Positions 8,703 to 56,715 of a stretch of 64,000 nucleotides of DNA are shown here, piece by piece; positions within the stretch are counted from its first letter, which is position 1, and every line of letters starts with the position of its first letter. A program made the translations under genes and the position numbers. Source of the stretch: a bacterium (GTDB lineage Bacteria; Electryoneota; RPQS01; DYHQ01); NCBI GenBank assembly GCA_030622545.1, contig JAUXGA010000003.1:86748-150747 (forward strand). The letters run 5' to 3'. A model generated the notes under the pieces. The model had not been told where the DNA came from. It did not search any database and saw nothing but the letters and a program-made list of their open reading frames with translations.

Positions 8703-8727
8703 TACATTGAGCGGCTGACGGGACTCG
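8703..8727 (-). repeat. 25-nt copy of the tRNA-Gly 3' end; att-like direct repeat (putative attR) of an island ending at 16471
   Basis: TGAGCGGCTGACGGGACTCGAACCC is identical to 16447-16471. The flanking sequence diverges immediately and no complete tRNA can be folded here. Confidence 0.7.
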
Positions 8728-8844
8728 AACCCTACAGATTAACGCCCTCTAAGCCCTGTAAAATCAACAGTTACAAAATCTTCGCTTACTCTTAAGAGTG
8801 TCCTCCAGTGTGACGTAAATTGCTGTTCTTTGCTCTGGATTCTC

Positions 8845-8871
8845 CAAAAAACAGTACATTTTCAGTACAGG
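8845..8871. promoter_or_regulatory. Paired CAGTACA motifs (aaaaaacagtacattttcagtacagg); candidate integrase arm-type sites
   Basis: It shares the exact 15-mer aaaaacagtacattt with 30260-30274, which lies between integrase 2 and the tmRNA 3' end. Confidence 0.4.
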
Positions 8872-16429: not shown

Positions 16430-16446
16430 TGAATATTAACAACTTG

Positions 16447-16518
16447 AGCGGCTGACGGGACTCGAACCCGCAACACCCAGCTTGGGAAGCTGATACGCTA
16501 CCATTGCGTCACAGCCGC
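16447..16518 (-). tRNA. tRNA-Gly (anticodon CCC)
   Basis: RC reads GCGGCTG TG ACGC AATGGTA GCGT A TCAGC TTCCCAA GCTGG GTGTT GCGGG TTCGAGT CCCGT CAGCCGC T. This gives a 7-bp acceptor stem, a CCC anticodon in the loop and a GGGTTCGAGTCCC T-arm. CCA is not encoded. Confidence 0.85.
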
Positions 16519-16596: not shown

Positions 16597-17742
16597 TTAA
16601 TTCTTCGTAGACAAAATGGTAGACAATTCTGATGTGGAAGCTTTTCTAAGTGCCTGTTTCAAATCGGACATATCAAGTAATCCTGCATAGTTGTGGATGG
16701 TCGTCTGTATGCTGCTATGTCCCAAAATCTGTTTGACTGCGATTAAGGGAACACCGCTAAGAAGCATGTTCACGGCGAACGTATCGCGAAGGTTGTGCAT
16801 TTTCAGTGATCGTAATCCTGCTGCATCCCTGGCGCGATTGAATTTGATTGAAACATCATGTCGTATTCCCGGAAACAGTTTTCCTTTGCGTGGTTCTGGG
16901 AAAGCATTCAGAAGTTCTTTCTTCAGTACAGGTAAGATGGGAATTCGTCGTCCCCGTTTGGATTTAGTGATTCCCGCCGCTAAGATGATTTGCTCTGCAT
17001 CCAAGTCTACAATTCCGACGTTGGAAGAAATCACTTTCCTTGTGGTGTCGAACCATTCAAGTGATCGGGCTTCATTGCGCCGCATTCCTGTCAGTGATAA
17101 GACGACTAAGAAGGTTCGAATGGATACGCCGTTCTGGGTAATAGATTCGGCAGCTTCCAGCAATCGTCTGACTTCATCTGGTTTGTAGTAATCCCTGTTT
17201 ACCTGCGCGGGCACCCTGACTTCGTGAATGTGTGGGGGGTTCCATTCTTCCAGATCATTTTCCCTGACGCACCAATTCAGAAAGGCACGAAGATTACGAA
17301 GATGAATGTTCAGCGTATGTTTTGATAGTGGTCTAAGTCGTTTCTTCAAGCGGTTTCTGGCACCGCGTTTTATCAGTGCCGCCTGGAATTGGGATACGTG
17401 CTTCTTGGTTATCGCTTTCAACTGTAGATTTCCAACTACTTCCATAAAGATTTTCAGGGTGTGCTGGTGCAATTCACCGGTACGTTCACCCCATTGATGC
17501 TGCCGTTCTTCAAGGTATTCTTCCACCAGGCTGTGGATAGTTGGGCTGTCCTGCCCTTTGGCATTGGCAAAGGGATCGCGTCCGCGGTCAAGTTCGTGCT
17601 GAAGGTACTGGGCAATCTTAGTCGCTTCTTTCTTCTGGCTGGTTTGGGTGTTATGGGATTTTCGTCGGCCGTCTGGATATTTAATTTTCGCATACCATAC
17701 AGTCTTTCCATCAGCCAACGTCCTACGGTATAGTGATGTCAT
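16597..17742 (-). CDS. Tyrosine-type site-specific recombinase / phage integrase (integrase 1)
   Basis: C-terminal HxxR…Y catalytic motifs (HNLRDTFAVNML, HNYAGL). Start chosen at the internal MTSLYRR, preceded by the RBS AGGAGGG; the ORF track extends to 17790. Confidence 0.9.
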   Translation of the reverse strand: MTSLYRRTLADGKTVWYAKIKYPDGRRKSHNTQTSQKKEATKIAQYLQHELDRGRDPFANAKGQDSPTIHSLVEEYLEERQHQWGERTGELHQHTLKIFMEVVGNLQLKAITKKHVSQFQAALIKRGARNRLKKRLRPLSKHTLNIHLRNLRAFLNWCVRENDLEEWNPPHIHEVRVPAQVNRDYYKPDEVRRLLEAAESITQNGVSIRTFLVVLSLTGMRRNEARSLEWFDTTRKVISSNVGIVDLDAEQIILAAGITKSKRGRRIPILPVLKKELLNAFPEPRKGKLFPGIRHDVSIKFNRARDAAGLRSLKMHNLRDTFAVNMLLSGVPLIAVKQILGHSSIQTTIHNYAGLLDMSDLKQALRKASTSELSTILSTKN

Positions 17743-17760
17743 GGTTATCCCTCCTAAGAT

Positions 17761-17796
17761 AGAAAAACCCCGAAGTGACTGAATTGTCACCTCGGG
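17761..17796 (-). terminator. Strong rho-independent terminator between the nuclease gene and integrase 1
   Basis: 12-bp stem CCCCGAGGUGAC / GUCACUUCGGGG followed by UUUUU on the minus strand. Confidence 0.7.
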
Positions 17797-17828
17797 GCTC
17801 TTGGGTTAATGGATATGTTTCTACGTTC

Positions 17829-18635
17829 TCACGCCAGCGGATCAGCTATGCAGCTTACCTTGAATGGACAATCCACGCACTGCCATCCTGGGTTCGGGTA
17901 GAAGTGCTCCTCTCTCATGGCCTCACTTATCATCATCAGCATCCTCACAAATCGCTGTGCATCCTGATAAGTGCGATGGGTCTGGTACTTCAGGTGCAGG
18001 GGTGTTTTGTTCTTTAAAAGTACATCGAATCGAAGGTGGATGACCTCATTCTTCTCAATTGAATAGGCTTCCCGCGCCCAAAGGCTATAGGCTGTCAGCT
18101 GTAAGTTTCGTTGCACAGAATCATCAGTGTAGCGCGCACTGGCTGTCTTGTAATCCACGAACACAATATTCCCGTCATCAGTCTGCTCGATCAGGTCAAT
18201 TCTTCCGACCAAAGGCACGTCCAAAGTTTCGCCGGTTTCTCCATCCACGACATTCAGGGTGAAATCCTCTTCTACGCCCAGAACATCGCCGGGTTTGACG
18301 TTCTTCATGAAGCAATCTAACATCGCATGTCCCTGTTGTTGTATTTCTACCGGATCCTTGCCCGTCTTGAACTTCATCTCGACCTCAGCACAATCCTGAT
18401 ACAATCTCGTATCGAAGACGTCCTGAAGGTCTGTGATGGATGTTCTCTTTCTCTCTAAGTGATCGGTGTAATATTTCTCGATGGCTGCGTGAATAGCAGA
18501 TCCAAGCGTAAGGGCTGCTGGTTTGAATTGCCATTCCTCTCTGTCGATGTACTGGAAGCGATATCTCAGGGGGCAGATCAGGTACGTGTTGACTTGGCTG
18601 AAGCTGATATGGTCTGGGATGTTTGCGTAATTCAT
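17829..18635 (-). CDS. PD-(D/E)XK nuclease, Cas4/RecB-like exonuclease with a 4Fe-4S cysteine cluster
   Basis: N-terminal Cys (YLICPLRY), C-terminal C-x2-C-x5-C (CVDCPFKVSC), and a DYK-type nuclease core (FVDYKTA). Start at MNYANIPD with the RBS AAGGAGG; the ORF track extends to 18701. Confidence 0.75.
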   Translation of the reverse strand: MNYANIPDHISFSQVNTYLICPLRYRFQYIDREEWQFKPAALTLGSAIHAAIEKYYTDHLERKRTSITDLQDVFDTRLYQDCAEVEMKFKTGKDPVEIQQQGHAMLDCFMKNVKPGDVLGVEEDFTLNVVDGETGETLDVPLVGRIDLIEQTDDGNIVFVDYKTASARYTDDSVQRNLQLTAYSLWAREAYSIEKNEVIHLRFDVLLKNKTPLHLKYQTHRTYQDAQRFVRMLMMISEAMREEHFYPNPGWQCVDCPFKVSCIADPLA

Positions 18636-18717
18636 GGTGTTCCTCCTTTGGGTAAAAGGGAAGCGGCGCGGCCGATATGTTATTCGACTACGCCGCCTCA
18701 TTGCTCTGTTTAATTGA

Positions 18718-19479
18718 TTAGTTCCCGTTCAGGAAATGCCTCGATACCTGTCTGTTCCACGTCTCCGCGCGAAATGACTCCTGCCGTGTGAAGACATCAG
18801 TGAACGCATTATACAGGGCCCACTGATTATCTCCGTCCAGTGCCATGAACACATCGGCAGTGTACGTCTTGGGCAGCTTCAATTCACGGAAGGTGTTCTG
18901 GATGTCGGCTCTGTCGATGGGGATGTCCACTATCCTCTTCAGGCATGTGACTAATCCCAGCATCTTGTTAGACAGTTCTCTGATAGTGATGGCTGCTTGG
19001 GATAGCTCCTCAGTGAAGCCCTCGTTTCCGTAGTGCTTGAAACGGAAGCCCCCTAAGCGGAAGTCAACGACCATACCATTCGTGCAGATAAGTCTTTGCG
19101 CATTGAAGGCCAGTCCGAATGTCGTGCTGCCGTCATAGCTGTTAAATACGTCCACGGCTATCTGGACGATGTCGTCCTTCTGGGGTTCGAAGTTGATCTC
19201 CGGTAGAAGCCATCTTTGACGGTATCTCTTTCCATCGAACAGGTGTTTGGCTGACTGGTACTCATGGCCGGTTTTCTCCAGCACTTCTGTGGCGATCTCA
19301 CAAACGGTGTGGTTCTCGACCAGCTGATAGTCACCAGACACGATACCGACCTCTCTGTTCTCACAGTAGGGGTCAAGGATCACGGCATAACGCGAAGATT
19401 GCGCTCCGTTCTCAGTAAATAGGGGAACCTTTTTCACGGCGGCAAAGGGATCCAGGGGTTCAGTTGTTTTCTGTGACAT
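18718..19479 (-). CDS. Hypothetical phage/ICE protein, DUF932-like
   Basis: 253 aa. The central region VFNSYDGSTTFGLAFNAQRLICTNGMVV resembles the DUF932 signature. Recalled from memory, not searched. Confidence 0.45.
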   Translation of the reverse strand: MSQKTTEPLDPFAAVKKVPLFTENGAQSSRYAVILDPYCENREVGIVSGDYQLVENHTVCEIATEVLEKTGHEYQSAKHLFDGKRYRQRWLLPEINFEPQKDDIVQIAVDVFNSYDGSTTFGLAFNAQRLICTNGMVVDFRLGGFRFKHYGNEGFTEELSQAAITIRELSNKMLGLVTCLKRIVDIPIDRADIQNTFRELKLPKTYTADVFMALDGDNQWALYNAFTDVFTRQESFRAETWNRQVSRHFLNGN

Positions 19480-19568
19480 GATAGTTTCCTTTCTGGGTTA
19501 ATGGCATAAAAAAAGCCTCGACTTTCTTATGAAGCCGGGGCCTTACGATACGATAATTCTTGTTACTC

Positions 19569-20228
19569 TCATGCAGGTACATCCTCCAGGATTGTCAGTA
19601 GCTCGTCTGCCTCGTGTGTGGTCAGTGCGTACAGGGATTTCGAAAAGCGATTGCGGATCTTCTTGATTAGTTGGTTCTGGGGGATACCTTTTTGCTTGGC
19701 CACCTGGAAGATCTTGCTCATTTGGGCGTTGGTGACTCGGTGGGATTGCTCTTCGGGTTCTGCTTCCTCCTCTGGCTGTGGATTAGCTGATTCCTTGCCT
19801 CCGTTTCCGTTCGGCTTGATTTCCAGCCCGTACAGGTGCAGTCCCACACCGAACTGCGTGGCGCACTTCTTCAGGCAATCTGATGCTGCTCCTTTCAGGT
19901 CGTCTCCGATGCTCACAGGTTGGTTGTCCTGCTTGCCTCGTGTGATCGAAGATGAACCGAATTGCTGGTGTGTGATTCCGTGGGAAGATAATTCTCCAAG
20001 GACGATGACCTCGTCCTCAAGGATCAGGTGCTCGACGATGCGGAATGACCAGTATCCTTCCATCGCTTGGTTCAGGCGTTCGATGACGTAATGGGATCCG
20101 ACATAGTCCAGCATTTTGCCAAATCTGCCCTTACGTTGTTGGATTCTCTCCTCTTCGAATGGCTTGGTTAGCGCCTCAAGATTAAGGCGGCCATTACCGG
20201 TGCCGGTGGTTGTCTCGGTGGTTTCCAT
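19569..20228 (-). CDS. Rad52/Rad22-family single-strand annealing protein (phage Sak-like recombinase)
   Basis: The motif DDLKGAASDCLKKCATQFGVGLHLYG parallels Rad52 [23 protein letters not shown]. It is adjacent to the Cas4-like exonuclease, a two-gene recombination module. It has an acidic C-terminal tail. Confidence 0.6.
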   Translation of the reverse strand: METTETTTGTGNGRLNLEALTKPFEEERIQQRKGRFGKMLDYVGSHYVIERLNQAMEGYWSFRIVEHLILEDEVIVLGELSSHGITHQQFGSSSITRGKQDNQPVSIGDDLKGAASDCLKKCATQFGVGLHLYGLEIKPNGNGGKESANPQPEEEAEPEEQSHRVTNAQMSKIFQVAKQKGIPQNQLIKKIRNRFSKSLYALTTHEADELLTILEDVPA

Positions 20229-20271
20229 GATGAATTCCTTTCTTGTTGGTTAATGGTTTGAATTGTGAATG

Positions 20272-20306
20272 TGAAAAGCCCCCGCTGGAAACAGACCAGG
20301 GGGGCT
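20272..20306 (-). terminator. Hairpin terminator immediately upstream of the Rad52-like gene
   Basis: GCCCCCCUGG…CCAGCGGGGGC stem followed by a U-run on the minus strand. Confidence 0.55.
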
Positions 20307-20847
20307 CGGAACGTTTTGGATTAAGCCGGCAAACCCAAGAATAGGGTTCTGGAAATATTTCCCGAATTTTGCTCTCTATAAAGGCATCTCTATTTGTCTC
20401 GATAGGACTAGGTGGTAGTGAAAAATATGTGTGGATTTCCGGTGGAAGAAGCGGATTGGCTGCTTCTGGACATCAGATTCAGTTGGATACGCGCAAAATC
20501 ACGCCGAATTTACCACGTACACGTGCTTTAACAGTAGAAACTGATCTGACGTAAGTGGCTGTTTTTGGAAGGGGTAAGACTATGTCAGGTACTGGGCAAA
20601 TGGAAGGCAGGATGCCCCCGTAACATCTGCTGCTTTCGGATGAATGAAGCTGGGGGGACATCCCCTTGCGGGGTGGTGGTGATAGCAGGAAGGGATCTGG
20701 TATCAGTGATATGGCCTCTGCGGACTGTGATGGGGCTGGCACCTGTTACAGGCAGCTGTCGGCGGATACCACGCTGGGGACAGGTGACAGGGCCTTCCGG
20801 CCGGGGACTGCTCTTTCCTGTGGTGTGTTTGTCTGCTTCAGGGTCCG

Positions 20848-20896
20848 GCACCTTTGTCAAAGTAAAGATTTCTCTATAATATATTTTGGAAGATTC
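20848..20896. promoter_or_regulatory. Perfect 11-bp inverted repeat with a promoter-like TTGTCA…TATAAT core
   Basis: CAAAGTAAAGA(T)TTCTCTATAATATATTTTGGAAGA(T)TCTTTACTTTG. This is the most conspicuous element inside the 760-bp non-coding stretch at 20229-20989. Confidence 0.4.
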
Positions 20897-20989
20897 TTTA
20901 CTTTGGGGCTGACACAAGACCAAGACAAGCACCACAGGGGGTCTCAAGGGGCTTCCGGCGGCGCCAGCCGCGTGAATCCCAGTACTTGG

Positions 20990-23900
20990 CTACTTCATTT
21001 GCCCCATCCGGATGAAGTTCCTTGTGTCTGTTCCCAAGTCCATTTGCCTCATCCACCACTGTGTATATAGCACATCAAGCACTGGTGTCAGGCGCTGCTT
21101 GTCCTTGATACCTGCTGCCTGCCGAATGTCCGCCTTGGGCACCTTATAGACTTCGGGATTTGCAAAGGCTTCGATCAATACCCCGACCAATCTCCTGCTG
21201 CTATCAGGTGCGCTAAGCACCGATGGCCACTCTTCCGGTTCTATCCCTTTCAGTGCTTCCTTCAGCCGCCGTTTGAATTCCTTGTCCCTATTGCCCATGT
21301 ACACCGTCACGGGGCCGTTGATTCCATATTCCCTTAATTGCGTCCGGTATATCTGCTGTACCACGTCCACCAGCCAGGACTGCTGCCGGTAATGTTCTGC
21401 ATGGCCATTCAGGAACCTGCGCACTTTATCAGGGCCTGATTCAGCGTCAGCTTTATCGACAACTTCCCTTCCGTACAGGACTGCTGCCTGGGCCAGGTAC
21501 TGATCTTCATGATAGCGCAAATTCCCCACGAAGAACATCACCGTAGCTTTGCGGAAGTCATTGGATCCGGGGGTTTGACCATAGTGTTTTATCTGGCACC
21601 TTGCCTTTACTTCATCGGATAGGTGGGCTTCGATCTTATTTTCCCATTCTTTGAAAGTCAGGACGAAAGCTTCTTCATCAGGGTGAACGTAGGTCATCAG
21701 GCGGTCAATTTCTTGGGCGAATAGCTTCAGTTTTGCATCATCATTGTCGCCAAGGGACGTCTGGGACATGCTTCTGTTTTCGTCTAACCGAATTATCAGC
21801 TTATCGATATTCCTTGGCTGGTAGGATCCCAGGAAGCGAACATCAGGCCGGTTATCCAGAAGCACGTCGTAGTGGACATTGGCCAGTGCGGTTCCATCCA
21901 GGATGGTGGTCTTCACACCCACAGGCAAGTCCCGTGTCCTGTAACCGTAACTGATATGCAAGCCTTTGGCGTCCCTTCTGTAAGTTCCGCCTTCTTTGAT
22001 TATCCCCAGACTTAGCCGTAGAATATCACTATCATCATCCACGACGCTATGCACGGCACTAACATAGCCATCACTGACCTTAAAGCCTGGATCAATGGGT
22101 GGAATGAAGCCTTGCCCTGGTTCATCTTCAGGTACACGCAACTGTTCTAATTGTTTCCGCAGCGTATCAAACATACGCAGATGAAGCAATTCATGCGGCC
22201 GTTTCCTTTGTTCTTTGCGCAGGCGGTTCATGAACTGGACGAAGCTATTGTAGCTAACGGTATTCACCTTGATGAACTGGGGCACTTCATCAATGATGAT
22301 TTCGCGTCGGGGATGTCGATGTCCACTGGAATCTTGCCAGTACATGAAATCTTCCATATCCTGCATGGCCAAACGCGCATGGGTAATGGCCAAAATAGGA
22401 CTGTTGCGCTGGCGTTCCTTGTTATATTTCACGCGGCAGTTATAATTCTGGCACATAGCGCACTGCGAAGGTTTATATTTTTCGAATCCCCTGCCTTCAT
22501 AGTGTTCACAGTTTTTGCATTCCGGAAAAGTTCCATCGCCATTGGGACTTCGGTCACAGTTAACGTAGCAGAAAGCCGTGCAGATTTTCTTAGCATGGCC
22601 CAGCATGGGATAAACGGTTCTTCCGCTAACATTACGTTCCCCCGGCACGAAACGGTCAGCTTCATCGGCCAAATCTTTTGCATCATCCTGTAAAGGCAAA
22701 ACGACGATAGCGCCATAATACCGGTCCAGGCGGCGAAGTCCCTCAAGATAGGTGCGGTAGATAGAGGTCTTGAAATTCCCTGGCGCTGCTGGTACAATGG
22801 CAATATCATCAAGGTTGCGACACAGAGCCTTGACAACGGCTGTCCAGTCAGCTTGGTAGTTGGATTCAACGGACTTGTAGCGGTTTTCGAGCCTGTCGCG
22901 TATTACTCGATACACTTCACCTAATATGCGGACTGAATTCGCATCGAGGTTTGCGTAGAATCTTTCTTCTGAACGCCTGCATTCCTTCAATTCCTTGTAG
23001 AGCCACTTCGCCCTGAGCAATCCCCATTGAATAGTGGGTGGCAATCCGTTTGGGGGATTCCATCCTGCTGCTTCAATCAGTTGTTCAAAATTGTAATCCC
23101 TATCGTCACAGGAAAAGCAATGGGATTGGCCAGTCCTTAGATTAATCGACCAACTGGGATTCCGGTCATCGTGAAAAGGACAGCTGGCATTAAGTTCATC
23201 GCGACTGCGTTGTGCATTTTCGACTTTATCCCGAAGATATTCTTCAATATCGACACCATATTCAGATATGATGGAGCCAGCGATTGCCTGGTTGCCATCT
23301 TCACTGCTGATGGCTAAGCGTGCCAGTTGCCGTCTGGTACGGGATTCTTGTGGTTCTGTGCACTGCAATGATTCATGGACGTCGGCGACAAATTGCTTTA
23401 ATTCATCGCATAGCCCTGGACTTCGCTGATCTTCAGGCTGCCGGTCTTCTTTCGCCCATTCTGCAAATATGGATAGATCGTTCTGCCACAGTTCTTCAAA
23501 CGACAATGGAATCTTGTACAAACCGGTCTTGAAATGTCGGACATGTGGTGGCACAATGGCCGATGCGCCCATTCTATAAATCTTCATATCAGGAACAACA
23601 CCAGCCATGCCAGCAATGCGCTGCGCACTTTCCCCAATATCAGTCATTGTGTACGGGCTACGGGGATGTGCAAAAACATGATGCGGCATGTAAATATGGA
23701 ATCCACTGCTGCCAGTGAAATAGATCTGAATCTGGGAGTCCTGTAGATGAAAGCGCTTGATCAGAGAATCAACCAACTGCCGCGCATCACCCACAGTATC
23801 CTGTGAATCAATATCAAAAACCATATCAATATCGCTTGGGCCATCTTCCTGTTGCCAGTAATCCTGAATCGACCAAACCGCGCCGATTCTTTGATCGGGA

Positions 23901-24046
23901 TCGCACGGGATTTCCTTAACGGCTTCGTGGGCTTCGGGCAAGGGAAGAAATTGTGGTCCCTGCCGTCTAATGGCCCAGACCTTCTTGTAATATGTGATAG
24001 GATTTTCCATTAAAGGGTGCCGCCGCGCATATTTATTACCAGACAA
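20990..24046 (-). CDS. Replication protein: PrimPol (AEP) primase-polymerase + DnaG-type CHC2 zinc finger + Cys-rich cluster + helicase-like C-terminal region
   Basis: AEP motifs DIDMVFDID and FTGSSGFHIY. CHC2 finger CPFHDDRNPSWSI…CFSC. Cys-rich segment CTAFCYVNCDR…CKNCEHY…CAMCQNYNC. Walker-B-like IIIDEV. 1018 aa. Confidence 0.75.
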   Translation of the reverse strand: MSGNKYARRHPLMENPITYYKKVWAIRRQGPQFLPLPEAHEAVKEIPCDPDQRIGAVWSIQDYWQQEDGPSDIDMVFDIDSQDTVGDARQLVDSLIKRFHLQDSQIQIYFTGSSGFHIYMPHHVFAHPRSPYTMTDIGESAQRIAGMAGVVPDMKIYRMGASAIVPPHVRHFKTGLYKIPLSFEELWQNDLSIFAEWAKEDRQPEDQRSPGLCDELKQFVADVHESLQCTEPQESRTRRQLARLAISSEDGNQAIAGSIISEYGVDIEEYLRDKVENAQRSRDELNASCPFHDDRNPSWSINLRTGQSHCFSCDDRDYNFEQLIEAAGWNPPNGLPPTIQWGLLRAKWLYKELKECRRSEERFYANLDANSVRILGEVYRVIRDRLENRYKSVESNYQADWTAVVKALCRNLDDIAIVPAAPGNFKTSIYRTYLEGLRRLDRYYGAIVVLPLQDDAKDLADEADRFVPGERNVSGRTVYPMLGHAKKICTAFCYVNCDRSPNGDGTFPECKNCEHYEGRGFEKYKPSQCAMCQNYNCRVKYNKERQRNSPILAITHARLAMQDMEDFMYWQDSSGHRHPRREIIIDEVPQFIKVNTVSYNSFVQFMNRLRKEQRKRPHELLHLRMFDTLRKQLEQLRVPEDEPGQGFIPPIDPGFKVSDGYVSAVHSVVDDDSDILRLSLGIIKEGGTYRRDAKGLHISYGYRTRDLPVGVKTTILDGTALANVHYDVLLDNRPDVRFLGSYQPRNIDKLIIRLDENRSMSQTSLGDNDDAKLKLFAQEIDRLMTYVHPDEEAFVLTFKEWENKIEAHLSDEVKARCQIKHYGQTPGSNDFRKATVMFFVGNLRYHEDQYLAQAAVLYGREVVDKADAESGPDKVRRFLNGHAEHYRQQSWLVDVVQQIYRTQLREYGINGPVTVYMGNRDKEFKRRLKEALKGIEPEEWPSVLSAPDSSRRLVGVLIEAFANPEVYKVPKADIRQAAGIKDKQRLTPVLDVLYTQWWMRQMDLGTDTRNFIRMGQMK

Positions 24047-24210: not shown

Positions 24211-24756
24211 CTACTTCACCAGCAGGAGCTTGCGGACTTTGGTGAAGCTTCCCGCATCCATCCTACACAAATAAATGCCTGAAGGAAGGCCCCGTGCATT
24301 CCATGTGGCAGCATACGAACCTGCCGCCAGTTTTCCATCTACCAGGATTGCTACTTCCCTTCCCACCACATCATAAATCTTCAGGGAAACAAAACCGGTT
24401 TCCGCAACGTCATATGAAATCGTGGTTATCGGATTGAAAGGATTGGGATAATTCTGGTAGAGAGCATACTGTACTGGAACCGATGGCCTTCCCGGAGTAG
24501 CCTGAGCGGTCAGTTCATATTCATGAACAGTGCCGTTGATGTCGTGTGATATGAGGCGATATGTGTAAGTTACACCGTTGATAACATCGCTATCAACATA
24601 CTGGTAATTCGAGCCAGTTACTTCATTGGTGCCTTGGACTGTTCCGACGGTAATCCAATCACTGTTTGCCTGTCGCTGTATTTCAAAGTAGTCGTTATCT
24701 TTTTCACTGGCGGTAGTCCAAGTCAGAGTCACCTGTCCATCACCTGCGATTAGCAT
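24211..24756 (-). pseudogene. Orphan fragment: Fn3-like domain plus a T9SS C-terminal sorting domain with no signal peptide
   Basis: It starts directly with AGDGQVTLTWTTASEKDNDYF, the same module that begins the conserved C-terminus of genes 30826-32685 and 44290-46332. It has no N-terminal export signal and sits next to the IS5-family element. Confidence 0.5.
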
Positions 24757-24871
24757 GAAGATGAGGATGAAGAGGAGAATTGTTCACTCCTGCTAGTTTG
24801 ATCGCTGGGAGATCTTTTTGTAACAAAGGCGCTGACGGAAAACAATCACATGCACCTATTTCAGGAGACTA

Positions 24872-25741
24872 GAGCATATCTCAAAAACATTTGCTTGTTA
24901 ACTTAGGGTGTCGTATCTTGACGGCCTCTCTCTTTTTGGAGGTTATCAAGATGGATTTAACTGAAGAACAGTGGGCGTTGATTGCCTCGTTAGTGGCTGA
25001 TCGGCCTCGAATTAAGCGACGCAAGGTGGATAGGCGGGGACGGCCCCGCGTTCCGGCGCGCCCGATCTTGAACGGGATCTTATGGATCCTAAGGACAGGG
25101 GCTCCTTGGCATGACTTACCCGACCGCTACCCGTCTTACCAAACCTGTCACCGCCGCTTTCAACAGTGGTCGCGCGATGGCACTTTTGAAAGCGTGTTGC
25201 GCGCCTTGGCCCAGGATCTATGGGAACGGGGTGAGTTAGACTTGTCCGAATCCTTCATCGACGGTACGTTCGTACCGGCGAAAAAAGGGGGCGGCAGGTG
25301 GGTCCCACCCGTCGGGGTAAAGGCACGAAGATCATGGCCGTGGCAGACGGCGCTGGTTTTCCTCTCGCCGTGTGCACAGCGAGTGCTTCCCCGAATGAAG
25401 TGACGCTGGTCGATCAGACCTTGCAGGCCCGCTTCATCGAGGAGTTACCCTGTCGGATGATCGGGGACAAGGCTTATGACAGCGATCCGCTGGATGCTCA
25501 TCTCCTGCACGACTACGGCATCGAAATGATCTCCCCCAATCGCGCCTCACGCACGCGAAAGACCCAGGATGGTCGCCCCCTGCGACGCTATCGAAGGCGT
25601 TGGAAGGTTGAACGGTTGTTTGCCTGGTTGGGGCAGTTCCGCCGCATTGCCACGCGCTACGACCACTTCGTCGAAAACTACATCGGCTTCCTGCACCTCG
25701 GATGTATGATCATTCTCCTACGATGTTTTTAAGATACGCTC
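24872..25741 (+). mobile_element. IS5-family (IS427/IS1031-like) insertion sequence
   Basis: Terminal inverted repeats GAGCATATCTCAAAAACAT / ATGTTTTTAAGATACGCTC, flanked by TA within a CTAG context. Two overlapping transposase ORFs. Confidence 0.75.
24891..25732 (+). CDS. IS5-family transposase, orfA+orfB joined by a programmed -1 frameshift
   Basis: OrfA is 24891-25403 and orfB is 25298-25732. The A7G slippery run GGCGAAAAAAGGGGG lies at about 25279-25293 in the overlap. OrfB carries a DDE region. Confidence 0.75.
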
Positions 25742-25747
25742 TAGCCA

Positions 25748-26543
25748 CAGCGGTGGAAAGTGGTGGCCCTGGATCTTGTGGTGGACCGCTCACCGGATAC
25801 CCAAGCGAGAGATTCAGAACCTCAGCACCTTGGGTTCCCGACCAGGCAATGCCGTCGGCGATCGCTTGTGTGGTTCCGCTCCCCTCATCGTCGAGAACGC
25901 GAATCGGCATGAAGGTACATAGAGGAGCAACGCCGGCAACACCCACAGAGTTGTTCGTTGCCGCAAGGATGGTTCCGGCCACATGCGCGCCGTGCGAGTC
26001 ATCGACAGTGGTTGAAGGGTCCGTATCGCCGCCAACGAAATCGTAAGGATGAACAGTCTGGACGCCCGTCCAGTCCTCATGGTCAAAGTAAAAACCCATG
26101 TCGGCTACCGCTACGACGACACTTGCGCTGCCGAGTGTGATGTCCCAGGCCTGGGGCATGTTAATTCTCGGGTAGTGCCACTGGTACCCGTAATAGGTGT
26201 CATTGGGAGTATAAGCGGCGTGTGCGATATAGTTGAAGTTGGCCCATAAAACACCATCCTGTCCACGGAGAAAACTGATCGCTTCTTCAACATCAGTACC
26301 AGAGAGGTCAATGCGGTAGAAGTCGAGCAGCGCGCTGTGGTAGGAGAGTTCGCCGTCCACTTGGGCGGCAATCGCAGTGATATCCGCCGTTTTAATGGTC
26401 GGCGCGAATTTAACGAGCACCTGACCGGGAACAAATTCATAGAAAGGTTCCCCTGTCTTCAGTAAGGGCAAGGGTTTGGTCGCGAACACTGGCGTGAGAC
26501 CAAGTAGCACGACCATAAGGGTGGCAAGAGTCCTGTGCATCAC
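25748..26543 (-). pseudogene. S8 subtilisin-like peptidase, N-terminal part only, truncated at the IS5 right end
   Basis: Signal peptide, propeptide-like region, catalytic Asp (VVAVADMG), His (HGAHVAGT) and Asn region (NLSLG). The reading frame then runs into the IS inverted repeat. The Ser (GTSMxxP) region is absent. Confidence 0.65.
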
Positions 26544-27047
26544 TGCACCTCAATAATTTTAAACGAAAATACCGAGTTGCTATCGAGCAAACTGGATGCC
26601 ACTAGAACTCATTATTGAATATCAGGAATAATGTGCATGGGGTCAGTTGTGATACGGATTTGCAAGTTGAATTAATGTGGATCTTAGATAGGATCTGAGT
26701 GACCGGTTTCGGCGCCAATACTCTGGCGATGGATTCCCGGACTGCGGGTCAGAATCGCTTTGGAACGCTTGTGACAGGATCCACAGGGAAAATGTTTCCA
26801 TGGGTCAGATGCATCTTTCGTGCTTCCCTGCATGGCAGGTAGTCTCCTGCTGAAGCGACGCATTGCAATCTCATGGATGGTGGATCAGGATGCTGAAAAT
26901 GCATTTTAGCAAATGTTTCTAAAACTGTGCAATTCAACAGATGCTGTTTAACCGTAGCCCCAATGCGCTGGCATACTAAAGATGAAGTTTGGGCTACCCG
27001 AAACGATCACGCTGCCGTCCCTGCGATACACCTTCGCATCCCATCTA

Positions 27048-28180
27048 GTGCCGTTTCCGATAAGGTAATCCCGTTGAGTCGGAACGGGCAGGTTGTGCGT
27101 AGAAGGAGTAGGGTTCCAAATCTAAAAGGAGGTTGGATGTCTACTCCGGTCAAGCTTCGACCGATTAGCGATACCGAAGGTCAGGCATTAGTGCGGACCG
27201 TTCGGCGCTCGCCAGACCCGGTTGCTCAACGCCGTGCCACCTGTGTGTTGGCGGCGGCCACAGGGATGAAGGTGCCGCAGATTGCGCGTAACCAGTTGAT
27301 TGATGAGACCTTAGTGCGGCGCATTCTGCATGCGTTTAATGCCCAAGGTCTGGCTTCACTGGGCAACCGCTATGGCAAAGGTCGCCCGCGCAAGTTTGAT
27401 GACCACACGCGCCGGAAGATTGTCGATACCGTCTGTACTCCACCGTATCAACTGAAGCTCCCTTTCAGCGTCTGGTCGCTGCCCAAGTTGCGGGACTATC
27501 TGATCCAGAAGCGGATGGTGTCCTCCATCGCCATCGAGACGCTCCGGCGGCTGCTACGCGAGGAAGGAGTCAGTTTACAGCGCACCAAGACCTGGAAGCA
27601 GTCCACCGATCCTGACTACGCCGCTAAAAAAAAGCGGTCGAGCAGTGTTACAAAGCCGCGGAAGCGGGCCGCTGGACGGTAATCTGCTTCGATGAGTTCG
27701 GGCCGTTGGAAATTCGTCCGCATCCCGGTGTGGACTGGGCCCGTCATGGTCAGGTGCGACGATTACCGGCGACCTACAAACGTCCACACGGCACGCGGTA
27801 TTTATTGGCTGCGTATGATGTGCAGACCCAGGCGTTGTGGGGTTCTATCTACCAACGGTAGACGTGGAACGAGGTGCTCGACTTCCTGAAAGCGGTGCGT
27901 CGGCGTTATCCTGACGATAGGTGGTTACACGTGGTTCTCGACAATCGAAGCAGTCACAAAAAGCAAGAGGTGCGACAGTGGTGCGCGGCCAACCGCGTGC
28001 GGCTGGTCTTCCAGCCGACTTACAGTTCATGGCTGAACCGGATTGAATGCCAGTTCACCGCGCTCAAAAAGTTCGCGCTGAGCGGTCGCTATTTCAAAGA
28101 TCACGACGAACAGAATGCGGCGATCCGTGCCTACTTAAACTACCACCGAAAATCGAGATAACCTTTCGAGAAACGGCACT
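27048..28180 (+). mobile_element. IS630-family insertion sequence with a TA target duplication
   Basis: 29-bp terminal inverted repeats (GTGCCGTTTCCGATAAGGTAATCCCG / CGAGATAACCTTTCGAGAAACGGCAC) flanked by TA on both sides. Confidence 0.75.
27136..28161 (+). pseudogene. IS630-family transposase (HTH + DDE_3) with a frameshift at an A-run and an in-frame TAG
   Basis: Starts MSTPVKL with the RBS AAAGGAGG. Frame change at the A8 run GCTAAAAAAAAGCGG (27614-27628). Stop TAG at about 27858 (…IYQR*TWNEV…). The DDE region VVLDN…SH…QPTYSSWLN is in the last segment. Confidence 0.65.
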
Positions 28181-28466
28181 AGGCGTTAAAATCAGCACGA
28201 TCCGTAAATGGACGCACTACAAGTTTATCCCTCATATTAAAATGCGGCGCACCGTACGGTTTGACCGCGATGAAATAGATGCGTGGTTAAACAGGCAGGT
28301 AAGTAGAGGGAGAACTCAAATTCGACGGCAGTCACTATCTGCCGATGGCTAGAGATCAGTTAATCGAAAGGCTCCAATTAAAGGGAGCCTTTCTTCTTAC
28401 TGGGGAGGGGAACGAAATTGGGCGGAATATTTATCTTAGTTCTTTGGCATATTCTTAATGCCGAGC

Positions 28467-29039
28467 TTAGTTGACCTGGAGAACATCATCCACCGTTCGC
28501 TTTAGGTTTCCATATGTGACTGGATCGACAAGTTTCTTGATAGTATTCAAAGTCACACTCTTTTGCTCCCTAAATTCTTTATTGATAATCTCAGTATTCA
28601 CAACATAGAATGCCCATTTGTTCAGGTCTAATATATTGGCTTGCTGGCTGTCTTGTTCGGTGAACAAACAGAAAACATAGCAATCTGAATATCGACCCTT
28701 AGTGGGTTTCTCTGTGTTCGTAGATGCATCCCAGCCTTGTTTTTTGGCTATGTCAAATACGATCTTTGATAGCTTCACCTGGGGCCATGATTGTACGTAG
28801 GCAGATGTCTTCACCTCGATTATATGACCGCGATAGCGAAGATCTACGTAATCCCACTCTATCCGTGGTTCGTTGGCGACTTCTAATGCTGTGGCTACGA
28901 GGAATTCGGCAAGCACAGACCGATTGGTATTCACCAACAAGTCGGAATACGCCCATGACCAGAAGTCCTTGACCGTAACATTCTTTGCCTTGTCGATATA
29001 TTCGGTTCCATCCAGCATCAACAGAGTTTTTGGCTTCAT
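28467..29039 (-). CDS. Hypothetical protein, possible small PD-(D/E)XK-fold nuclease; AT-rich cargo gene next to integrase 2
   Basis: 190 aa. Candidate D…EVK motif (DYVDLRYRGHIIEVKTS). Locally AT-rich relative to its neighbours. No recognisable family. Confidence 0.35.
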   Translation of the reverse strand: MKPKTLLMLDGTEYIDKAKNVTVKDFWSWAYSDLLVNTNRSVLAEFLVATALEVANEPRIEWDYVDLRYRGHIIEVKTSAYVQSWPQVKLSKIVFDIAKKQGWDASTNTEKPTKGRYSDCYVFCLFTEQDSQQANILDLNKWAFYVVNTEIINKEFREQKSVTLNTIKKLVDPVTYGNLKRTVDDVLQVN

Positions 29040-29066
29040 TATGGATACCTTTATGCTTGAATTCAG

Positions 29067-30191
29067 CTATTTCTTATCACTCTCACGCTTAGATCCAATT
29101 GCAATTTTGAGCTTCTTGATCTGTTGATGTTTGTGTTCAGGCAGTAGATTCAGGTACCGCTGTGTCTGGACGATACTGGAGTGACCGAGCCATTCCTGTA
29201 CGGTGCGGATGTCCACACCAGAGGCGAGGGCATTGGTGGCGAAGGTATGGCGGAAGAGATGAAGGCCGGTCATGTGGCGCCCTTTGTCGATGCGAACGCC
29301 TTCGTTTCTCTCTATGCGGTCAAGCAACGCAACCCATGTGTTTCGATTATGTCCCTTGGGATTGCCGTTTCGTCCTGTGAATACGTATGGAGTGGACTCA
29401 TCTCGTTGACGCCTAAGTTTCTTGAATCCTTCAATAGCTTCTGAATGAAGAGGAATAATTCGATCCTTGCGATTCTTTGTTCGGTGTGTTGTTGTGCTGC
29501 GAACTTTCAAATGTTCCTGTCCGGAAGTAAGATCTATATCCTGCCATTTCAGATACCTTGCTTCGCCGTCTCGCAAACCGGTATAGAGCAGGGTTTGATA
29601 GAAGGGTATCAGATGTTTTTGGGCATACTTGAAAATCAGTGCTAACTCATCAGGCGTTAGAATTTCAATAGGTGGTTTCTCAGCATATCTTTTGGTAATA
29701 TTAGCGGCAGGATTCCGCACAAGGTATTCTCTGCCTACTGCAAATCGGAAAAATCGTTTAATTGTGCCAAGTTCTTCGTTCCAAGTCTTAGCAGCGAGAA
29801 CTTCGGATCGATTGTCCAAGTGTTCTTCTATATCTTGTGTTGTAACCCTGACGAGGTTAATCAAACCATTGTCTTTGAGAAACCGTACAAAAGGTGAGAA
29901 CAACTGATTCAACCGCTTCGACCAAGAGGAAGACGTCTTATCGATCACACGAGAATAGAATTCCGCAATCACTTTCGGTGAACTTATACGCTGTTGGGGT
30001 AAGCCAGTAATGCCGCGTTCAAGATTCTTCTCAATATCGGCCTTGGCAAGCTCCGCCATCTTCTTGCCGGTAACTTTTAGAGATTTTTTAAGCTGTCTGC
30101 CGTTCTCCATATAAGTAATCCACCAGACTTTACCTGGTTTCTTCTGGCCCGAGGTTGGGTCGGTGATTTCACGACGATAGATTTTTGCCAT
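29067..30191 (-). CDS. Tyrosine-type site-specific recombinase / integrase (integrase 2) adjacent to tmRNA
   Basis: C-terminal LFRHTFATNALASGVDIRTVQEWLGHSSIVQTQRYLNL (HxxR…Y). Start at MAKIYRREI with the RBS AAGGAAAG; the ORF track extends to 30272. Confidence 0.85.
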   Translation of the reverse strand: MAKIYRREITDPTSGQKKPGKVWWITYMENGRQLKKSLKVTGKKMAELAKADIEKNLERGITGLPQQRISSPKVIAEFYSRVIDKTSSSWSKRLNQLFSPFVRFLKDNGLINLVRVTTQDIEEHLDNRSEVLAAKTWNEELGTIKRFFRFAVGREYLVRNPAANITKRYAEKPPIEILTPDELALIFKYAQKHLIPFYQTLLYTGLRDGEARYLKWQDIDLTSGQEHLKVRSTTTHRTKNRKDRIIPLHSEAIEGFKKLRRQRDESTPYVFTGRNGNPKGHNRNTWVALLDRIERNEGVRIDKGRHMTGLHLFRHTFATNALASGVDIRTVQEWLGHSSIVQTQRYLNLLPEHKHQQIKKLKIAIGSKRESDKK

Positions 30192-30252
30192 CAGTCTTTC
30201 CTTGTTTGCGTGGTTTAGAGTGTGACAGAATTTCGTATTGATTGCCCAAATT

Positions 30253-30274
30253 ACAGTACAAAAACAGTACATTT
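30253..30274. promoter_or_regulatory. Paired CAGTACA motifs (acagtacaaaaacagtacattt) between integrase 2 and the tmRNA 3' end; candidate arm-type sites
   Basis: Exact 15-mer match to 8846-8860. Positioned in the putative attL region. Confidence 0.4.
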
Positions 30275-30294
30275 GGATTTGGGTATAATATAAT

Positions 30295-30333
30295 AAAAAG
30301 AAAAACCCCTGTTAAGTAAGCACTTAACAAGGG
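30295..30333 (-). terminator. Rho-independent terminator of tmRNA
   Basis: CCCUUGUUAAGU…ACUUAACAGGGG hairpin followed by UUUUUCUUUUU on the minus strand. Confidence 0.65.
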
Positions 30334-30342
30334 CTAATTTGT

Positions 30343-30825: not shown

Positions 30826-32685
30826 TTATTTAACCAACAACAACTTCCTCACCTGCGCAAATCCCTCCGCTTCCATCCGGCACAGATAAATTCCCGACGG
30901 CATCCCGGCAGCATCCCATGTCATCGAATAAGAACCGGCGGAATGCTCTTCATGAGTCAGCGTTGTCACTTCACGCCCTAATAAATCGAATATCTTCAGC
31001 GAAACCAGTCCGGCTTCCTTCACATCATAGCGAATCGTTGTCACCGGATTGAACGGATTCGGATAGTTTTGGTGAAGGGCGAATTCAGTCGGCATCGCGT
31101 CCCTGCCGGGCGTGGTGGAAACGATATGTTCGTAGAACGTTTCGCGTCCGGCGATATCTACATCAGAAATTTGATATTCATATGTAGTGCCATTCTGCAC
31201 CCACGAATCTACAAATTGATAATCATGCGGCTCGGCGGTTGTTCCATGACCGGGGATTTCAGTTAGCCTGTGAAAATCTTCTTCTCCAGTTTTGCGTTTG
31301 TACAAGACAAAGTGGTCGTTGTTGAGCTCGCTTGCCGTCTGCCAGTGGAGCGTCACTTGCCCATCACCTGCGACAGCTTGAAACGTCGTCATTTCTACAG
31401 GTAACGGAATATCACGCCAATGCTCATAAGCTCCAATATCCGGTAATGAACCCGGTGGATTTGGTCGTGGATTACCATCCATATCAAACGGCGGTGGATC
31501 AGTCGGATCTGCTGCACCAATACAAGGGCTATAGTCGTCGAGGTGAAAATCGCTCGCTGCCGTGTCGGCAAGCAATGGATCAAGGAAGATGTTGTTGTAT
31601 TGATCACAAGAATCTCCGTTAGAATTGGTTGTTACAAGCTCTCCGATGCTTGTCGGTCCATTCGAAGGGTCATCGTTGTAAAAAGCGAAATTACCGGCGC
31701 TGTTGCCAAAGAAGTCGCAATAGGAAACCTGACTGCCTGCGCCGTCCTCAAACTCAAAGTAGATGCCCGAGCCATTAGAAAAGGCGATAATCGTGCTGTT
31801 GAAGACCAGCGAAGAATAGCCGCAATACACACCACCGCCGGTGTTTGCCGCGTTGTTGCTGAGCGTGCAATTCGTAAAGAGCGGCGAACAATAGCCATAG
31901 CAATACACCCCGCCACCATTGAATGCCCAGTTGTCGCTGAGGGTGCAATTGGTGAAGGTCGGCGAAGAATCCCAACTGAAATACGCCCCGCCGCCGGTGT
32001 CGCCTGCCGAGTTGCCGCTTATCGTGCAATACATTAAGGTCGGCGAGGAATTGGAGAAATATACCCCACCGGCGCATGAGGATGCCCAGTTGCCGCTCAC
32101 AGCGCAATTCGTGAAGCTCGGCGAAGAATACCAGTTGCACAACACCCCGCCGCCGCAGTTTGACGCCGAGTTGCTGGCGATTAAGCAATTCGTGAAGCTC
32201 GGCGCAGAATAATATTCGCAAAACACCCCGGCGCCGAAGGATGCTGAGTTGTTGCTGATAGTGCAATGCGCAAAGCTTGGTGAAGAATTGTTGCAAAACA
32301 CTCCTCCGCCGTATGTATTCGGATAGCCATCAATCGCTAAGCCTTTCTCGATGAGGCAATAGGCCAGTCGGCTACCCGAACTGCCCGAATAGAAGCGTAG
32401 TCCCTGCCAGCGGTTCGAACCTGATTGTTCCGTCGTGAATACAATCGAATCACTTTCAGTTCCTTCGGCCAAGAGCGTTCCGTAGATGCGGAATGGATAT
32501 GGCCCATCAAAGTGAAAGATCGTCCCGGGTTGAAGCGTTAGGCTATCTCCCGATTCAATTGAAATATCTCCAACAACGTGATACGTTCCGGGGCCCAAAA
32601 TACCGTTTAGAGCGCCAGAAATATCCGTCCCAAAAGTCACCTGCGCACAGGCGAGAACGAGTAAACTGATTAGAGTGTTTCGCAT
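30826..32685 (-). CDS. Secreted parallel beta-helix (PbH1-repeat) protein with Fn3-like domain and T9SS C-terminal sorting domain (cassette paralog A)
   Basis: Signal peptide. About 10 tandem 22-aa repeats of type NCxISxNSAxxGGGVYC. The C-terminal 190 aa are about 90% identical to the tail of 44290-46332. Confidence 0.8.
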   Translation of the reverse strand: MRNTLISLLVLACAQVTFGTDISGALNGILGPGTYHVVGDISIESGDSLTLQPGTIFHFDGPYPFRIYGTLLAEGTESDSIVFTTEQSGSNRWQGLRFYSGSSGSRLAYCLIEKGLAIDGYPNTYGGGVFCNNSSPSFAHCTISNNSASFGAGVFCEYYSAPSFTNCLIASNSASNCGGGVLCNWYSSPSFTNCAVSGNWASSCAGGVYFSNSSPTLMYCTISGNSAGDTGGGAYFSWDSSPTFTNCTLSDNWAFNGGGVYCYGYCSPLFTNCTLSNNAANTGGGVYCGYSSLVFNSTIIAFSNGSGIYFEFEDGAGSQVSYCDFFGNSAGNFAFYNDDPSNGPTSIGELVTTNSNGDSCDQYNNIFLDPLLADTAASDFHLDDYSPCIGAADPTDPPPFDMDGNPRPNPPGSLPDIGAYEHWRDIPLPVEMTTFQAVAGDGQVTLHWQTASELNNDHFVLYKRKTGEEDFHRLTEIPGHGTTAEPHDYQFVDSWVQNGTTYEYQISDVDIAGRETFYEHIVSTTPGRDAMPTEFALHQNYPNPFNPVTTIRYDVKEAGLVSLKIFDLLGREVTTLTHEEHSAGSYSMTWDAAGMPSGIYLCRMEAEGFAQVRKLLLVK

Positions 32686-56304: not shown

Positions 56305-56570
56305 TTGCTGCATAAAAAACCCGATCTCTCATCGGGAAAGATCGGGCATGTTTTTATATCATGAGCATCTCTTCAACCCCGAAGGAGGCAACCATAGTAT
56401 TCAGAGCCGGTCTCCTGACTTGTGTCTCATCCTCTCGCGGCGCCTTCCCAACCGGCAAACCAATCCCGAAGGATTAATCCCACCGACCAGTGGCTTATTA
56501 CCGCGGTCGTCAACACTTACAGTGGCGGGGGCCATTCCCGATTCTCACGGGATTCCCGAGCACTCTGAAG
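56305..56570 (-). promoter_or_regulatory. Cobalamin (AdoCbl) riboswitch with a terminator-type expression platform
   Basis: Minus-strand sense reads GTGCTCGGGAATCCCGTGAGAATCGGGAATGGCCCCCGCCACTGTAA…GCCACTGG…GGGAAGGCG…CAGGAGACCGGCTC. These match the conserved cobalamin-riboswitch elements GGGAA…GGTG.AA.TCC, GC.G.CCCGC.ACTGT.A, GCCACTG…GGGAAGGC and CAGGA.ACC.GC. A terminator hairpin CCCGAUCU…AGAUCGGG+U6 lies at 56315-56345, 16 nt before the start codon. Confidence 0.8.
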
Positions 56571-56715
56571 CAAACAAAGCGTTGTAACAAAGAACTAATA
56601 CACTATACAAAAATATTCGGAAGATGTCAAGGAGAAAAAAATTCTTCGCTGAGAGAACAAGCCCCCGACCTGAATTCAGATCGGGGGCTAGGGTTAGATT
56701 ATCGAGAAGAACAAA

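Follow-up and report, generated by a model that had tools for sequence, protein, structure and literature searches.

We analyzed a 64,000-nucleotide (nt) stretch of DNA, hereafter the window, from a bacterium of the Electryoneota (positions 86,748–150,747 of contig JAUXGA010000003.1, assembly GCA_030622545.1). Within it, the gene for transfer-messenger RNA (tmRNA), ssrA, is followed on the same strand by a gene for a tyrosine integrase, which we call int2, and then by an open reading frame (ORF) for a protein of 190 amino acids (aa). Convergent with this ORF is a small gene for an excisionase-like helix-turn-helix protein of the HTH_17 family, which is split by an insertion sequence (IS) of the IS630 family (table 1). 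We describe the locus as what is left of an integrative element at the tmRNA 3′ end, and the 190-aa protein as a stand-alone nuclease of the PD-(D/E)XK fold that the element carries as cargo; this anatomy and this assignment we hold with high confidence. More guardedly, we propose that the nuclease may protect the host and the resident element from foreign DNA.

An earlier note on this DNA had placed an integrase immediately 3′ of ssrA. Calls made with ARAGORN, Rfam, and the Pfam Phage_integrase model bear this out, with 149 nt between the end of the tmRNA and the start of int2. That start is the MAKIY at position 30191 and not the listed one at 30272, as judged from database homologs and tblastn alignments; the exact protein (P0271, 374 aa) has 44 homologs. 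Relatives with 53–72% identity to int2 adjoin tmRNA or tRNA genes. At the loci L010 and L011 (72%) and L014 and L015 (61%) the integrase lies behind tRNA-Val and tRNA-Asp, the adjoining gene being tRNA-Asp in all four, and at L012 (58%) and L016 (53%) it adjoins a tmRNA gene, with the tags ANDTYALAA and ANNTYALAA, respectively. A metagenome scan with a 43-mer of the tmRNA 3′ end as query yielded 17 loci, five of which (L179, L182, L184, L191, and L192) have an integrase 54–64% identical to int2 beside the tmRNA on the opposite strand. The target switches between tmRNA and tRNA-Asp among relatives whose integrases are 72% identical. At our locus, ssrA is the integration target, and the tmRNA 3′ end is the left attachment (attL) side of the island.

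Every related integrase is accompanied by a small HTH_17 (excisionase-type) protein, and the HTH_17 protein of the window is 54–60% identical to those that accompany the int2 homologs. The two closest int2-type elements with downstream sequence to compare are L010 and L014; in both, the integrase gene is directly followed by the convergent HTH_17 gene with nothing in between. The nuclease gene of the window therefore counts as cargo, inserted into the element core. This gene has no match in the 17 related tmRNA loci. A 1,652-bp contig (L009) from an independent read-level assembly of SRR14923484 runs from the 3′ part of ssrA through the repeats described below and the integrase gene into the 190-aa ORF, of which it includes the first 36 codons, so the junctions between ssrA, int2, and the nuclease gene are not a binning artifact. 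A 26-nt species-specific tmRNA probe found no match in the metagenomes.

The short segment between ssrA and int2 contains three features of its own (table 1). The hairpin directly past the tmRNA has counterparts of the same type 3′ of the tmRNA in the 17 metagenomic loci of the clade, integrase-free ones included, and 3′ of tRNA-Asp in L010 and L014. We considered that it might be borne by the element and dropped this idea, since island-free tmRNA loci carry the same hairpin; a native ssrA terminator is the best reading because the integrase-free loci L183, L187/188, and L190 have it too. For the clade as a whole there are two readings of the hairpin, a terminator type in common use or a component of the integrase core site. 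Its consensus behind tmRNA and tRNA-Asp is CCC[CT]TG[CT]TAAGT-N4-[AG]CTT[AG]ACA[AG]GGG (L010 9846–9900; L014 9890–9945; L177–L193). The second feature, a predicted promoter-like site upstream of the integrase gene, shares its TATATT hexamer with the equivalent position in L010 and L014.

Just downstream of this site are two direct repeats, which the earlier note had read on the other strand as paired CAGTACA sites. The pair is genuine and is kept in related elements. The window contains the arrangement TGTACTG-N(2–8)-TGTACTG only twice, where chance would give 0.00, and an identical pair lies at the same distance past tRNA-Asp in L010 and L011. In all related arrangements, 7-nt direct repeats with an 11-nt period begin +70 nt from the end of the tRNA or tmRNA. 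The window and L010 share the form TGTACTG; L182 and L016 have TGTGCTA/G, L179 and L191 have TGTCCTA, and L180 and L192 have TGTCCTG; the pair in L014 is imperfect (TGTGCTG/CGTGCTG). As arm-type sites of the integrase or an operator would, the repeats vary together with the integrase across relatives, and they are therefore element-borne. Their probable role is one of these two, to bind the integrase or to regulate its promoter.

Table 1. Features of the ssrA–int2 island and its surroundings (window coordinates)
Feature	Position	Strand	Basis and remarks
tmRNA gene (ssrA), tag ANSTYALAA	30341–30695	−	ARAGORN; Rfam RF00023, 154.8 bits
Inverted-repeat terminator hairpin AGCCCTTGTTAAGT-GCTT-ACTTAACAGGGGTT with T run, directly past the tmRNA CCA end	30304–30335	−	Terminator scan
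Promoter-like site TTAACA-17 nt-TATATT, upstream of the integrase gene	30287–30315	−	Consensus scan, 10/12 matches, predicted
Paired direct repeats TGTACTG-TTTT-TGTACTG, first 70 nt past the tmRNA 3′ end	30254–30271	−	Pattern count
Tyrosine integrase int2, 374 aa	29067–30191	−	Pfam Phage_integrase 2.8e-27 and SAM-like N-terminal domain; phrog_1 1.6e-56
190-aa stand-alone PD-(D/E)XK nuclease (cargo ORF)	28467–29039	−	Intact ORF, 27 nt past the integrase stop
Hairpin between the convergent nuclease and HTH_17 genes, terminator-like for HTH_17	28366–28393	+	Terminator scan; inverted repeat I21
HTH_17 gene (excisionase-like), 3′ part; runs toward the nuclease gene	28182–28352	+	Pfam HTH_17 1e-07; NCBIfam "excise" 3.7e-09
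IS630-family element, CTAG target, TA duplication, splits HTH_17	27048–28179	+	Inverted repeats; HTH_32/HTH_29 and DDE_3 domains
5′ part of the HTH_17 gene (MKFGLPETITLPSLRYTFASHL...)	26982–27047	+	In-frame reconstruction without IS630

From its spacing, the nuclease gene is probably co-transcribed with int2. It had been called markedly AT-rich, which overstates the case: its GC content is 0.433 against 0.492 for the window (standard deviation 0.036 in 573-bp windows), a mild deviation at the 6.8th percentile, and GC at third codon positions is 0.50. Most of the contrast comes from the GC-rich IS630 (0.564) and from a nearby IS5-family element (0.569); the integrase gene is at 0.456.

The earlier note had found no recognizable family for the 190-aa protein. 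In fact, the family is large, and its distribution is patchy. A word-indexed search returned 316 full-length homologs of about 185 aa from bacteria and archaea (e.g., Methanospirillum hungatei Mhun_1552), those listed being 47–59% identical to the query, and a profile search of 1.84 billion cluster representatives gave 3,481 clusters at E ≤1e-3, 761 of them at E ≤1e-30. The gene is present in at least 582 species-representative genomes of both domains at 45–60% identity; carriers include cyanobacteria, Acidobacteriota, Chloroflexota, Planctomycetota, Bacillaceae, Streptomyces, and methanogens. Domain libraries say little about it. Local Pfam and NCBIfam scans of the protein gave nothing meaningful, the local Pfam copy lacking the PF26887 (Phage_T4_End_IV) model; a Pfam scan of 32 family members at E ≤1 gave scattered noise, and a PDB sequence search with the 190-aa protein gave chance matches only. 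Looking up the exact sequence of this protein, and that of a 619-aa protein encoded upstream of ssrA, returned no record. In precomputed annotation, which uses a newer Pfam release, PF26887 is assigned, the matches being weak or faint wherever their strength is shown. Two fusion proteins of the family, P0228 (466 aa) and P0267 (341 aa), carry a DUF6508 N-terminal or a HIT C-terminal domain, and these fusions gave no functional lead.

Several lines of evidence identify the protein as a nuclease. First, the possible D…EVK motif pointed out in the earlier note is real and conserved: across 32 homologs E45, E75, K77, and Q83 are invariant, and D63 (at least 90%) and D66 are nearly so. This is the helix-1 E…D…ExK pattern of PD-(D/E)XK nucleases, from which we infer an active site formed by E45, D63, E75, and K77 and metal-dependent catalysis. 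Second, an AlphaFold2 model built with the family alignment (predicted local distance difference test score 91.8, predicted template modeling score 0.89) shows a single domain. In structural comparison its highest values are with NhoI (9.0), I-Ssp6803I (7.9), and the N-terminal domain of Eco15I (7.7), followed by PvuII (7.6), RecU (6.2), and Hjc (5.8). Foldseek likewise ranks NhoI first (E = 1.9e-3, template modeling [TM] score 0.40–0.49), then EcoRV and PvuII; against BFVD its matches are weak (best E = 1.9e-3). The guess of a nuclease is thus confirmed as far as the fold is concerned. On this model, the 190-aa protein is of the PD-(D/E)XK nuclease fold and comes from neither a solved nor a characterized family.

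Two groups of characterized enzymes offer a comparison. NhoI and Eco15I belong to the BisI family, which cuts only methylated or hydroxymethylated GCNGC and has an active site composed of WD and QxK (PMC11347163). The 190-aa protein also has WD, followed by E-V-K where the BisI enzymes have Q-x-K. The likeness to them is one of fold (TM 0.40–0.49), a PDB sequence search having detected no similarity to BisI or NhoI. The second group is that of endonuclease IV (DenB) of phage T4, a Mg-dependent, deoxycytidine-specific endonuclease of single-stranded DNA that spares DNA containing glucosylated hydroxymethylcytosine and is toxic to Escherichia coli (PMC1635256, PMC2175332, PMC12916289). We collected homologs of T4 denB (from AF158101) and compared profiles with hhalign, which aligned the two families over 47 columns (E = 3.2e-4, probability 39%) that contain the shared core motifs AE[FY]xV, WD, and [VI]EVK[ST]; phrog_1360 was matched at E = 0.016. 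The lengths are similar (185 vs 190 aa). The invariant C-terminal residues S176 and G180 of DenB fall outside the aligned region, however, and DenB is found in lytic T4-like phages, whereas the 190-aa family is found in cells and temperate phages. As far as sequence can tell, the relation to DenB is at the level of a superfamily or a distant family, and we do not take it for membership.

The surroundings of the gene in cellular genomes are diverse. The 140 immediate neighbors at 73 loci match 179 Pfam families, none of them more than three times, and no DNA methyltransferase, antitoxin, or integrase recurs among them. A minority of genome neighbors match defense models (mad2, SIR2, BrxF, AbiEi, DrmD, and Cas6), and one cellular context that we inspected has a ResIII helicase and an N6_N4 methyltransferase nearby. 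The family resembles Type IV restriction enzymes in being a nuclease without a cognate methyltransferase. Because it persists alone, with neither methyltransferase nor inhibitor, in hundreds of genomes, the nuclease would be harmless to the DNA of its own host. In three Streptomyces genomes (L133 5327–5416, L135 5544–5631, and L151 5668–5755) tRNA-Ser(GGA) is followed on its 3′ side, after a few hundred nt, by the nuclease gene; no recombinase was detected at these loci, which suggests integrase-less islets at a tRNA site.

These neighborhoods bear on the suggestion of the earlier note that the gene is an addiction-type payload. In its present form this explanation would make the protein a DenB-like offensive nuclease or addiction toxin, held in check by an unrecognized inhibitor, that stabilizes the element or degrades host DNA. 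The weak sequence relation to T4 endonuclease IV speaks for it, as does the toxicity of DenB to E. coli (PMC2175332, PMC12916289). It would call for a partner, and none is conserved next to the gene; its neighbors in the window, int2 and HTH_17, both belong to the element core. Moreover, the gene stands by itself among housekeeping genes in hundreds of cellular genomes, a situation difficult to square with an indiscriminate nuclease, the temperate phages that have it carry it beside CI-type repressor genes and integrase, in a region usually expressed in lysogens, and the family does not align with DenB over its two invariant C-terminal residues. The lack of a conserved partner makes an addiction module the least probable of the explanations we considered, and we give a DenB-like toxin of either kind very little weight.

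Viral genomes provide a more regular picture. IMG/VR contains 92 relatives, of which we retained 80, representing 26 clusters at 80% identity. In 41 of these 80 loci a recombinase gene starts within 400 nt downstream of the nuclease gene (24 large serine and 17 tyrosine recombinases), in 40 of the 41 on the same strand, and the pair often lies at a contig end. Counted by clusters, a recombinase lies downstream in 14 of 23 (nine serine, five tyrosine). The gene upstream of the viral nuclease encodes a helix-turn-helix protein of the CI/Cro type in 11 of 35 cases. From these counts, the slot of the gene in phages is directly upstream of the integrase gene, often past a CI/Cro-type regulator and whichever type the integrase is. 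Because the nuclease gene is wedged beside unrelated integrases in a region usually expressed in the lysogen, we favor a passenger that benefits the lysogen.

A rival explanation is a nuclease that serves the DNA transactions of the element or phage itself, such as a RecU- or Hjc-like junction or flap resolvase acting in integration, excision, replication, or packaging. We consider this unlikely. The serine and tyrosine recombinases that accompany the gene are mechanistically unrelated, which makes a direct role as cofactor improbable; the closest int2-type elements work without the nuclease; nearly all cellular copies have no recombinase nearby (counts below); and in structure the protein comes closest to restriction enzymes rather than to resolvases. 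Another possibility is a selfish, free-standing endonuclease of the homing type that spreads by cutting empty sites and being copied into them. Solitary copies in unrelated genomic contexts and in phages would be explained in this way, and the structural match to I-Ssp6803I fits; yet at no locus that we inspected does the gene lie inside an intron, an intein, or a conserved host gene, we saw neither a duplicated target at its flanks nor a disrupted gene, and a recurrent slot beside two unrelated types of integrase fits a passenger better. We judge homing improbable to the same degree as a resolvase.

A protective passenger has precedents. The lysogeny modules of prophages carry passenger ("moron") defense genes, among them rexAB of lambda, McrA of e14, and those of prophage-mediated defense in mycobacteriophages. 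Like these, the nuclease gene comes singly, plays no part in the core of the element, and is positioned between a CI-type repressor gene and the integrase gene at a prophage end. For the 190-aa family, a protective phenotype is putative.

We therefore favor an endonuclease directed at foreign DNA, given that the nearest structural relatives are restriction enzymes, the top one being modification-dependent, and that DenB senses cytosine modification. In the scenario that we propose, a small integrative element with a core of tyrosine integrase and convergent excisionase-like HTH_17 genes entered at the tmRNA 3′ end and gained one passenger gene between the two. The passenger would be a single-domain, metal-dependent DNA endonuclease of the PD-(D/E)XK type that works alone, probably as a dimer by analogy with its closest structural neighbors NhoI and PvuII. 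Its target would be DNA whose modification state or structure is unlike that of host DNA, much as for Type IV enzymes or, more distantly, T4 endonuclease IV, and the host and its resident element would thereby be protected from incoming phage or other foreign DNA. For this whole reading, a self-safe stand-alone endonuclease as a protective passenger, with the anatomy of the island included, we see the balance of evidence as about even. The protective function taken by itself we place somewhat short of even.

A number of observations weigh against this proposal. Among 80 cellular loci searched with iterated hidden Markov models, 76 have no recombinase within 6 kb and four have one, and most cellular neighbors are ordinary metabolic genes; because recombinases are rare nearby and the neighbors are mostly metabolic, the family is not confined to obvious mobile or defense islands. 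The phage copies always lie upstream of the integrase gene, whereas the copy in the window lies downstream of it, and for its co-transcription with int2 spacing is the sole basis. The protein is a single domain in which no modification-reading module can be recognized, unlike most Type IV enzymes, and the PADLOC 2.0 defense models gave no match at E ≤1. The structural matches are modest overall, with TM scores of 0.40–0.49. Finally, the link to DenB is limited to the 47 core columns and their 39% probability, and a T4-type endonuclease IV appears in BFVD only at rank 28 (E = 0.07).

On the side away from ssrA, the island is disrupted. The inverted repeats of IS630 are at 27045–27073 and 28154–28182, and excising 27048–28181 in silico restores a 79-aa HTH_17 ORF that starts at 26982. 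The island can demonstrably be followed to the 5′ part of this gene and no farther, and thus reaches at least to about 26980. The IS630 transposase is itself broken over at least three frames (26927–27682, 27692–27889, and 27874–28161), so that IS630, too, seems degenerate. Beyond HTH_17, the related elements have a protein of 216–236 aa and more small genes, none of which has a match in the window. Past 26500 there follow a fragment of an S8 peptidase gene cut by an IS5-family element and then a fragment encoding a C-terminal secretion domain. The earlier note had suggested that the island might extend through the IS630, S8, and IS5 remnants; IS630 does lie within it, as a simple insertion into its own HTH_17 gene, whereas nothing ties the S8 and IS5 remnants to it.

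No right attachment site (attR) was found in the window, which agrees with the earlier note. Repeated searches for a copy of the tmRNA 3′ end, by a scan allowing up to three mismatches in 22 nt and by short-word BLAST, found none elsewhere in the window, nor was there one in the intergenic segment 26500–27046. A 16-nt match at 26733–26749 is on the wrong strand, and we treat it as chance. In L012, L016, L182, and L184, we detected neither a second arm-repeat pair nor an attR within 7–12 kb. Island-free loci exist among relatives, as the comparison called for in the earlier note shows: L183, L187/188, and L190, from other species of the clade, have the same tmRNA 3′ end and hairpin and neither an int2 nor a nuclease homolog in the 2.8–11 kb downstream.

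The layout of the island, with a tyrosine integrase gene directly 3′ of ssrA on the same strand, an excisionase-type helix-turn-helix gene, and short variable cargo, is that of CP4-57 at the E. coli ssrA and of P4-type islands. Unlike these, the element in the window is very small, has no detectable attR, and has its excisionase-like gene split by IS630. It is a truncated remnant scrambled by insertion sequences and, because IS630 splits HTH_17 and no attR remains, probably immobile. As an island it is an ordinary, decayed tmRNA-site element.

A second trace of an integrated element lies elsewhere in the window. The last 26 nt of tRNA-Gly(CCC) (16446–16518; cf. 16444–16469) are repeated exactly at 8707–8732, and the only other TGTACTG-N4-TGTACTG pair of the window is at 8852–8869 on the minus strand, 120 nt before this copy. 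Together, the copy and the pair look like a relic attachment site of an int2-type element. We rejected the copy as attR of the ssrA island, since its core is identical to tRNA-Gly in 26 of 26 positions and to ssrA in 73%. A wider alignment of the region with the ssrA–int2 arm did no better than shuffled sequence (score 42, highest shuffle score 52). Between the two tRNA-Gly copies, 7.7 kb encode a SpoIIE/FHA/GAF phosphatase and two Ser/Thr kinase-TPR proteins and contain no integrase gene.

Further features of the window include a second mobile module (16597–24046, minus strand) with genes for a 1018-aa primase-like protein with a CHC2 zinc finger, a Rad52-family annealing protein, a DUF932 protein, a PDDEXK_1 (RecB/Cas4-like) nuclease, and integrase 1, which is 23% identical to int2. 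The integrase 1 gene stops 78 nt short of the 5′ end of tRNA-Gly, and elements at tRNA sites are not usually oriented in this way. Of the S8 peptidase gene, in the region 24211–26543, the part for the N-terminal 277 aa is left (25710–26543), cut by the IS5-family element (24891–25732). The 181-aa ORF at 24211–24756 is the C-terminal secretion-domain fragment and resembles the C-terminus of a 619-aa protein encoded upstream of ssrA. The gene for this secreted protein, which adjoins ssrA, contains six tandem copies of 88 nt spaced by 78 or 81 nt (31830–32313), which probably encode beta-helix repeats. A cobalamin riboswitch is at 56388–56582 on the minus strand (Rfam RF00174, 95.4 bits).

The tmRNA-site island is thus of a known kind, and what is new is an uncharacterized PD-(D/E)XK family with an informative prophage context. 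For the int2 integrase clade, the conserved repeat pair 70 nt past the tRNA or tmRNA end is a handy signature. The weak resemblance to DenB suggests that T4 endonuclease IV has distant relatives in cells and temperate phages. We also entertain, as a tentative and rather doubtful generalization, that the family as a whole is one of single-gene immunity, distantly related to DenB and BisI and carried beside integrase genes to exclude competing phages, and that it would tell self from foreign DNA with neither a methyltransferase nor a reader domain. In any case, about 3,500 sequence clusters can now be linked with confidence to a nuclease fold, and also to a recurrent slot in prophages, which makes the family a candidate single-gene anti-phage nuclease. 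If the protective role is true, the family would join the defense catalogs, which currently miss it.

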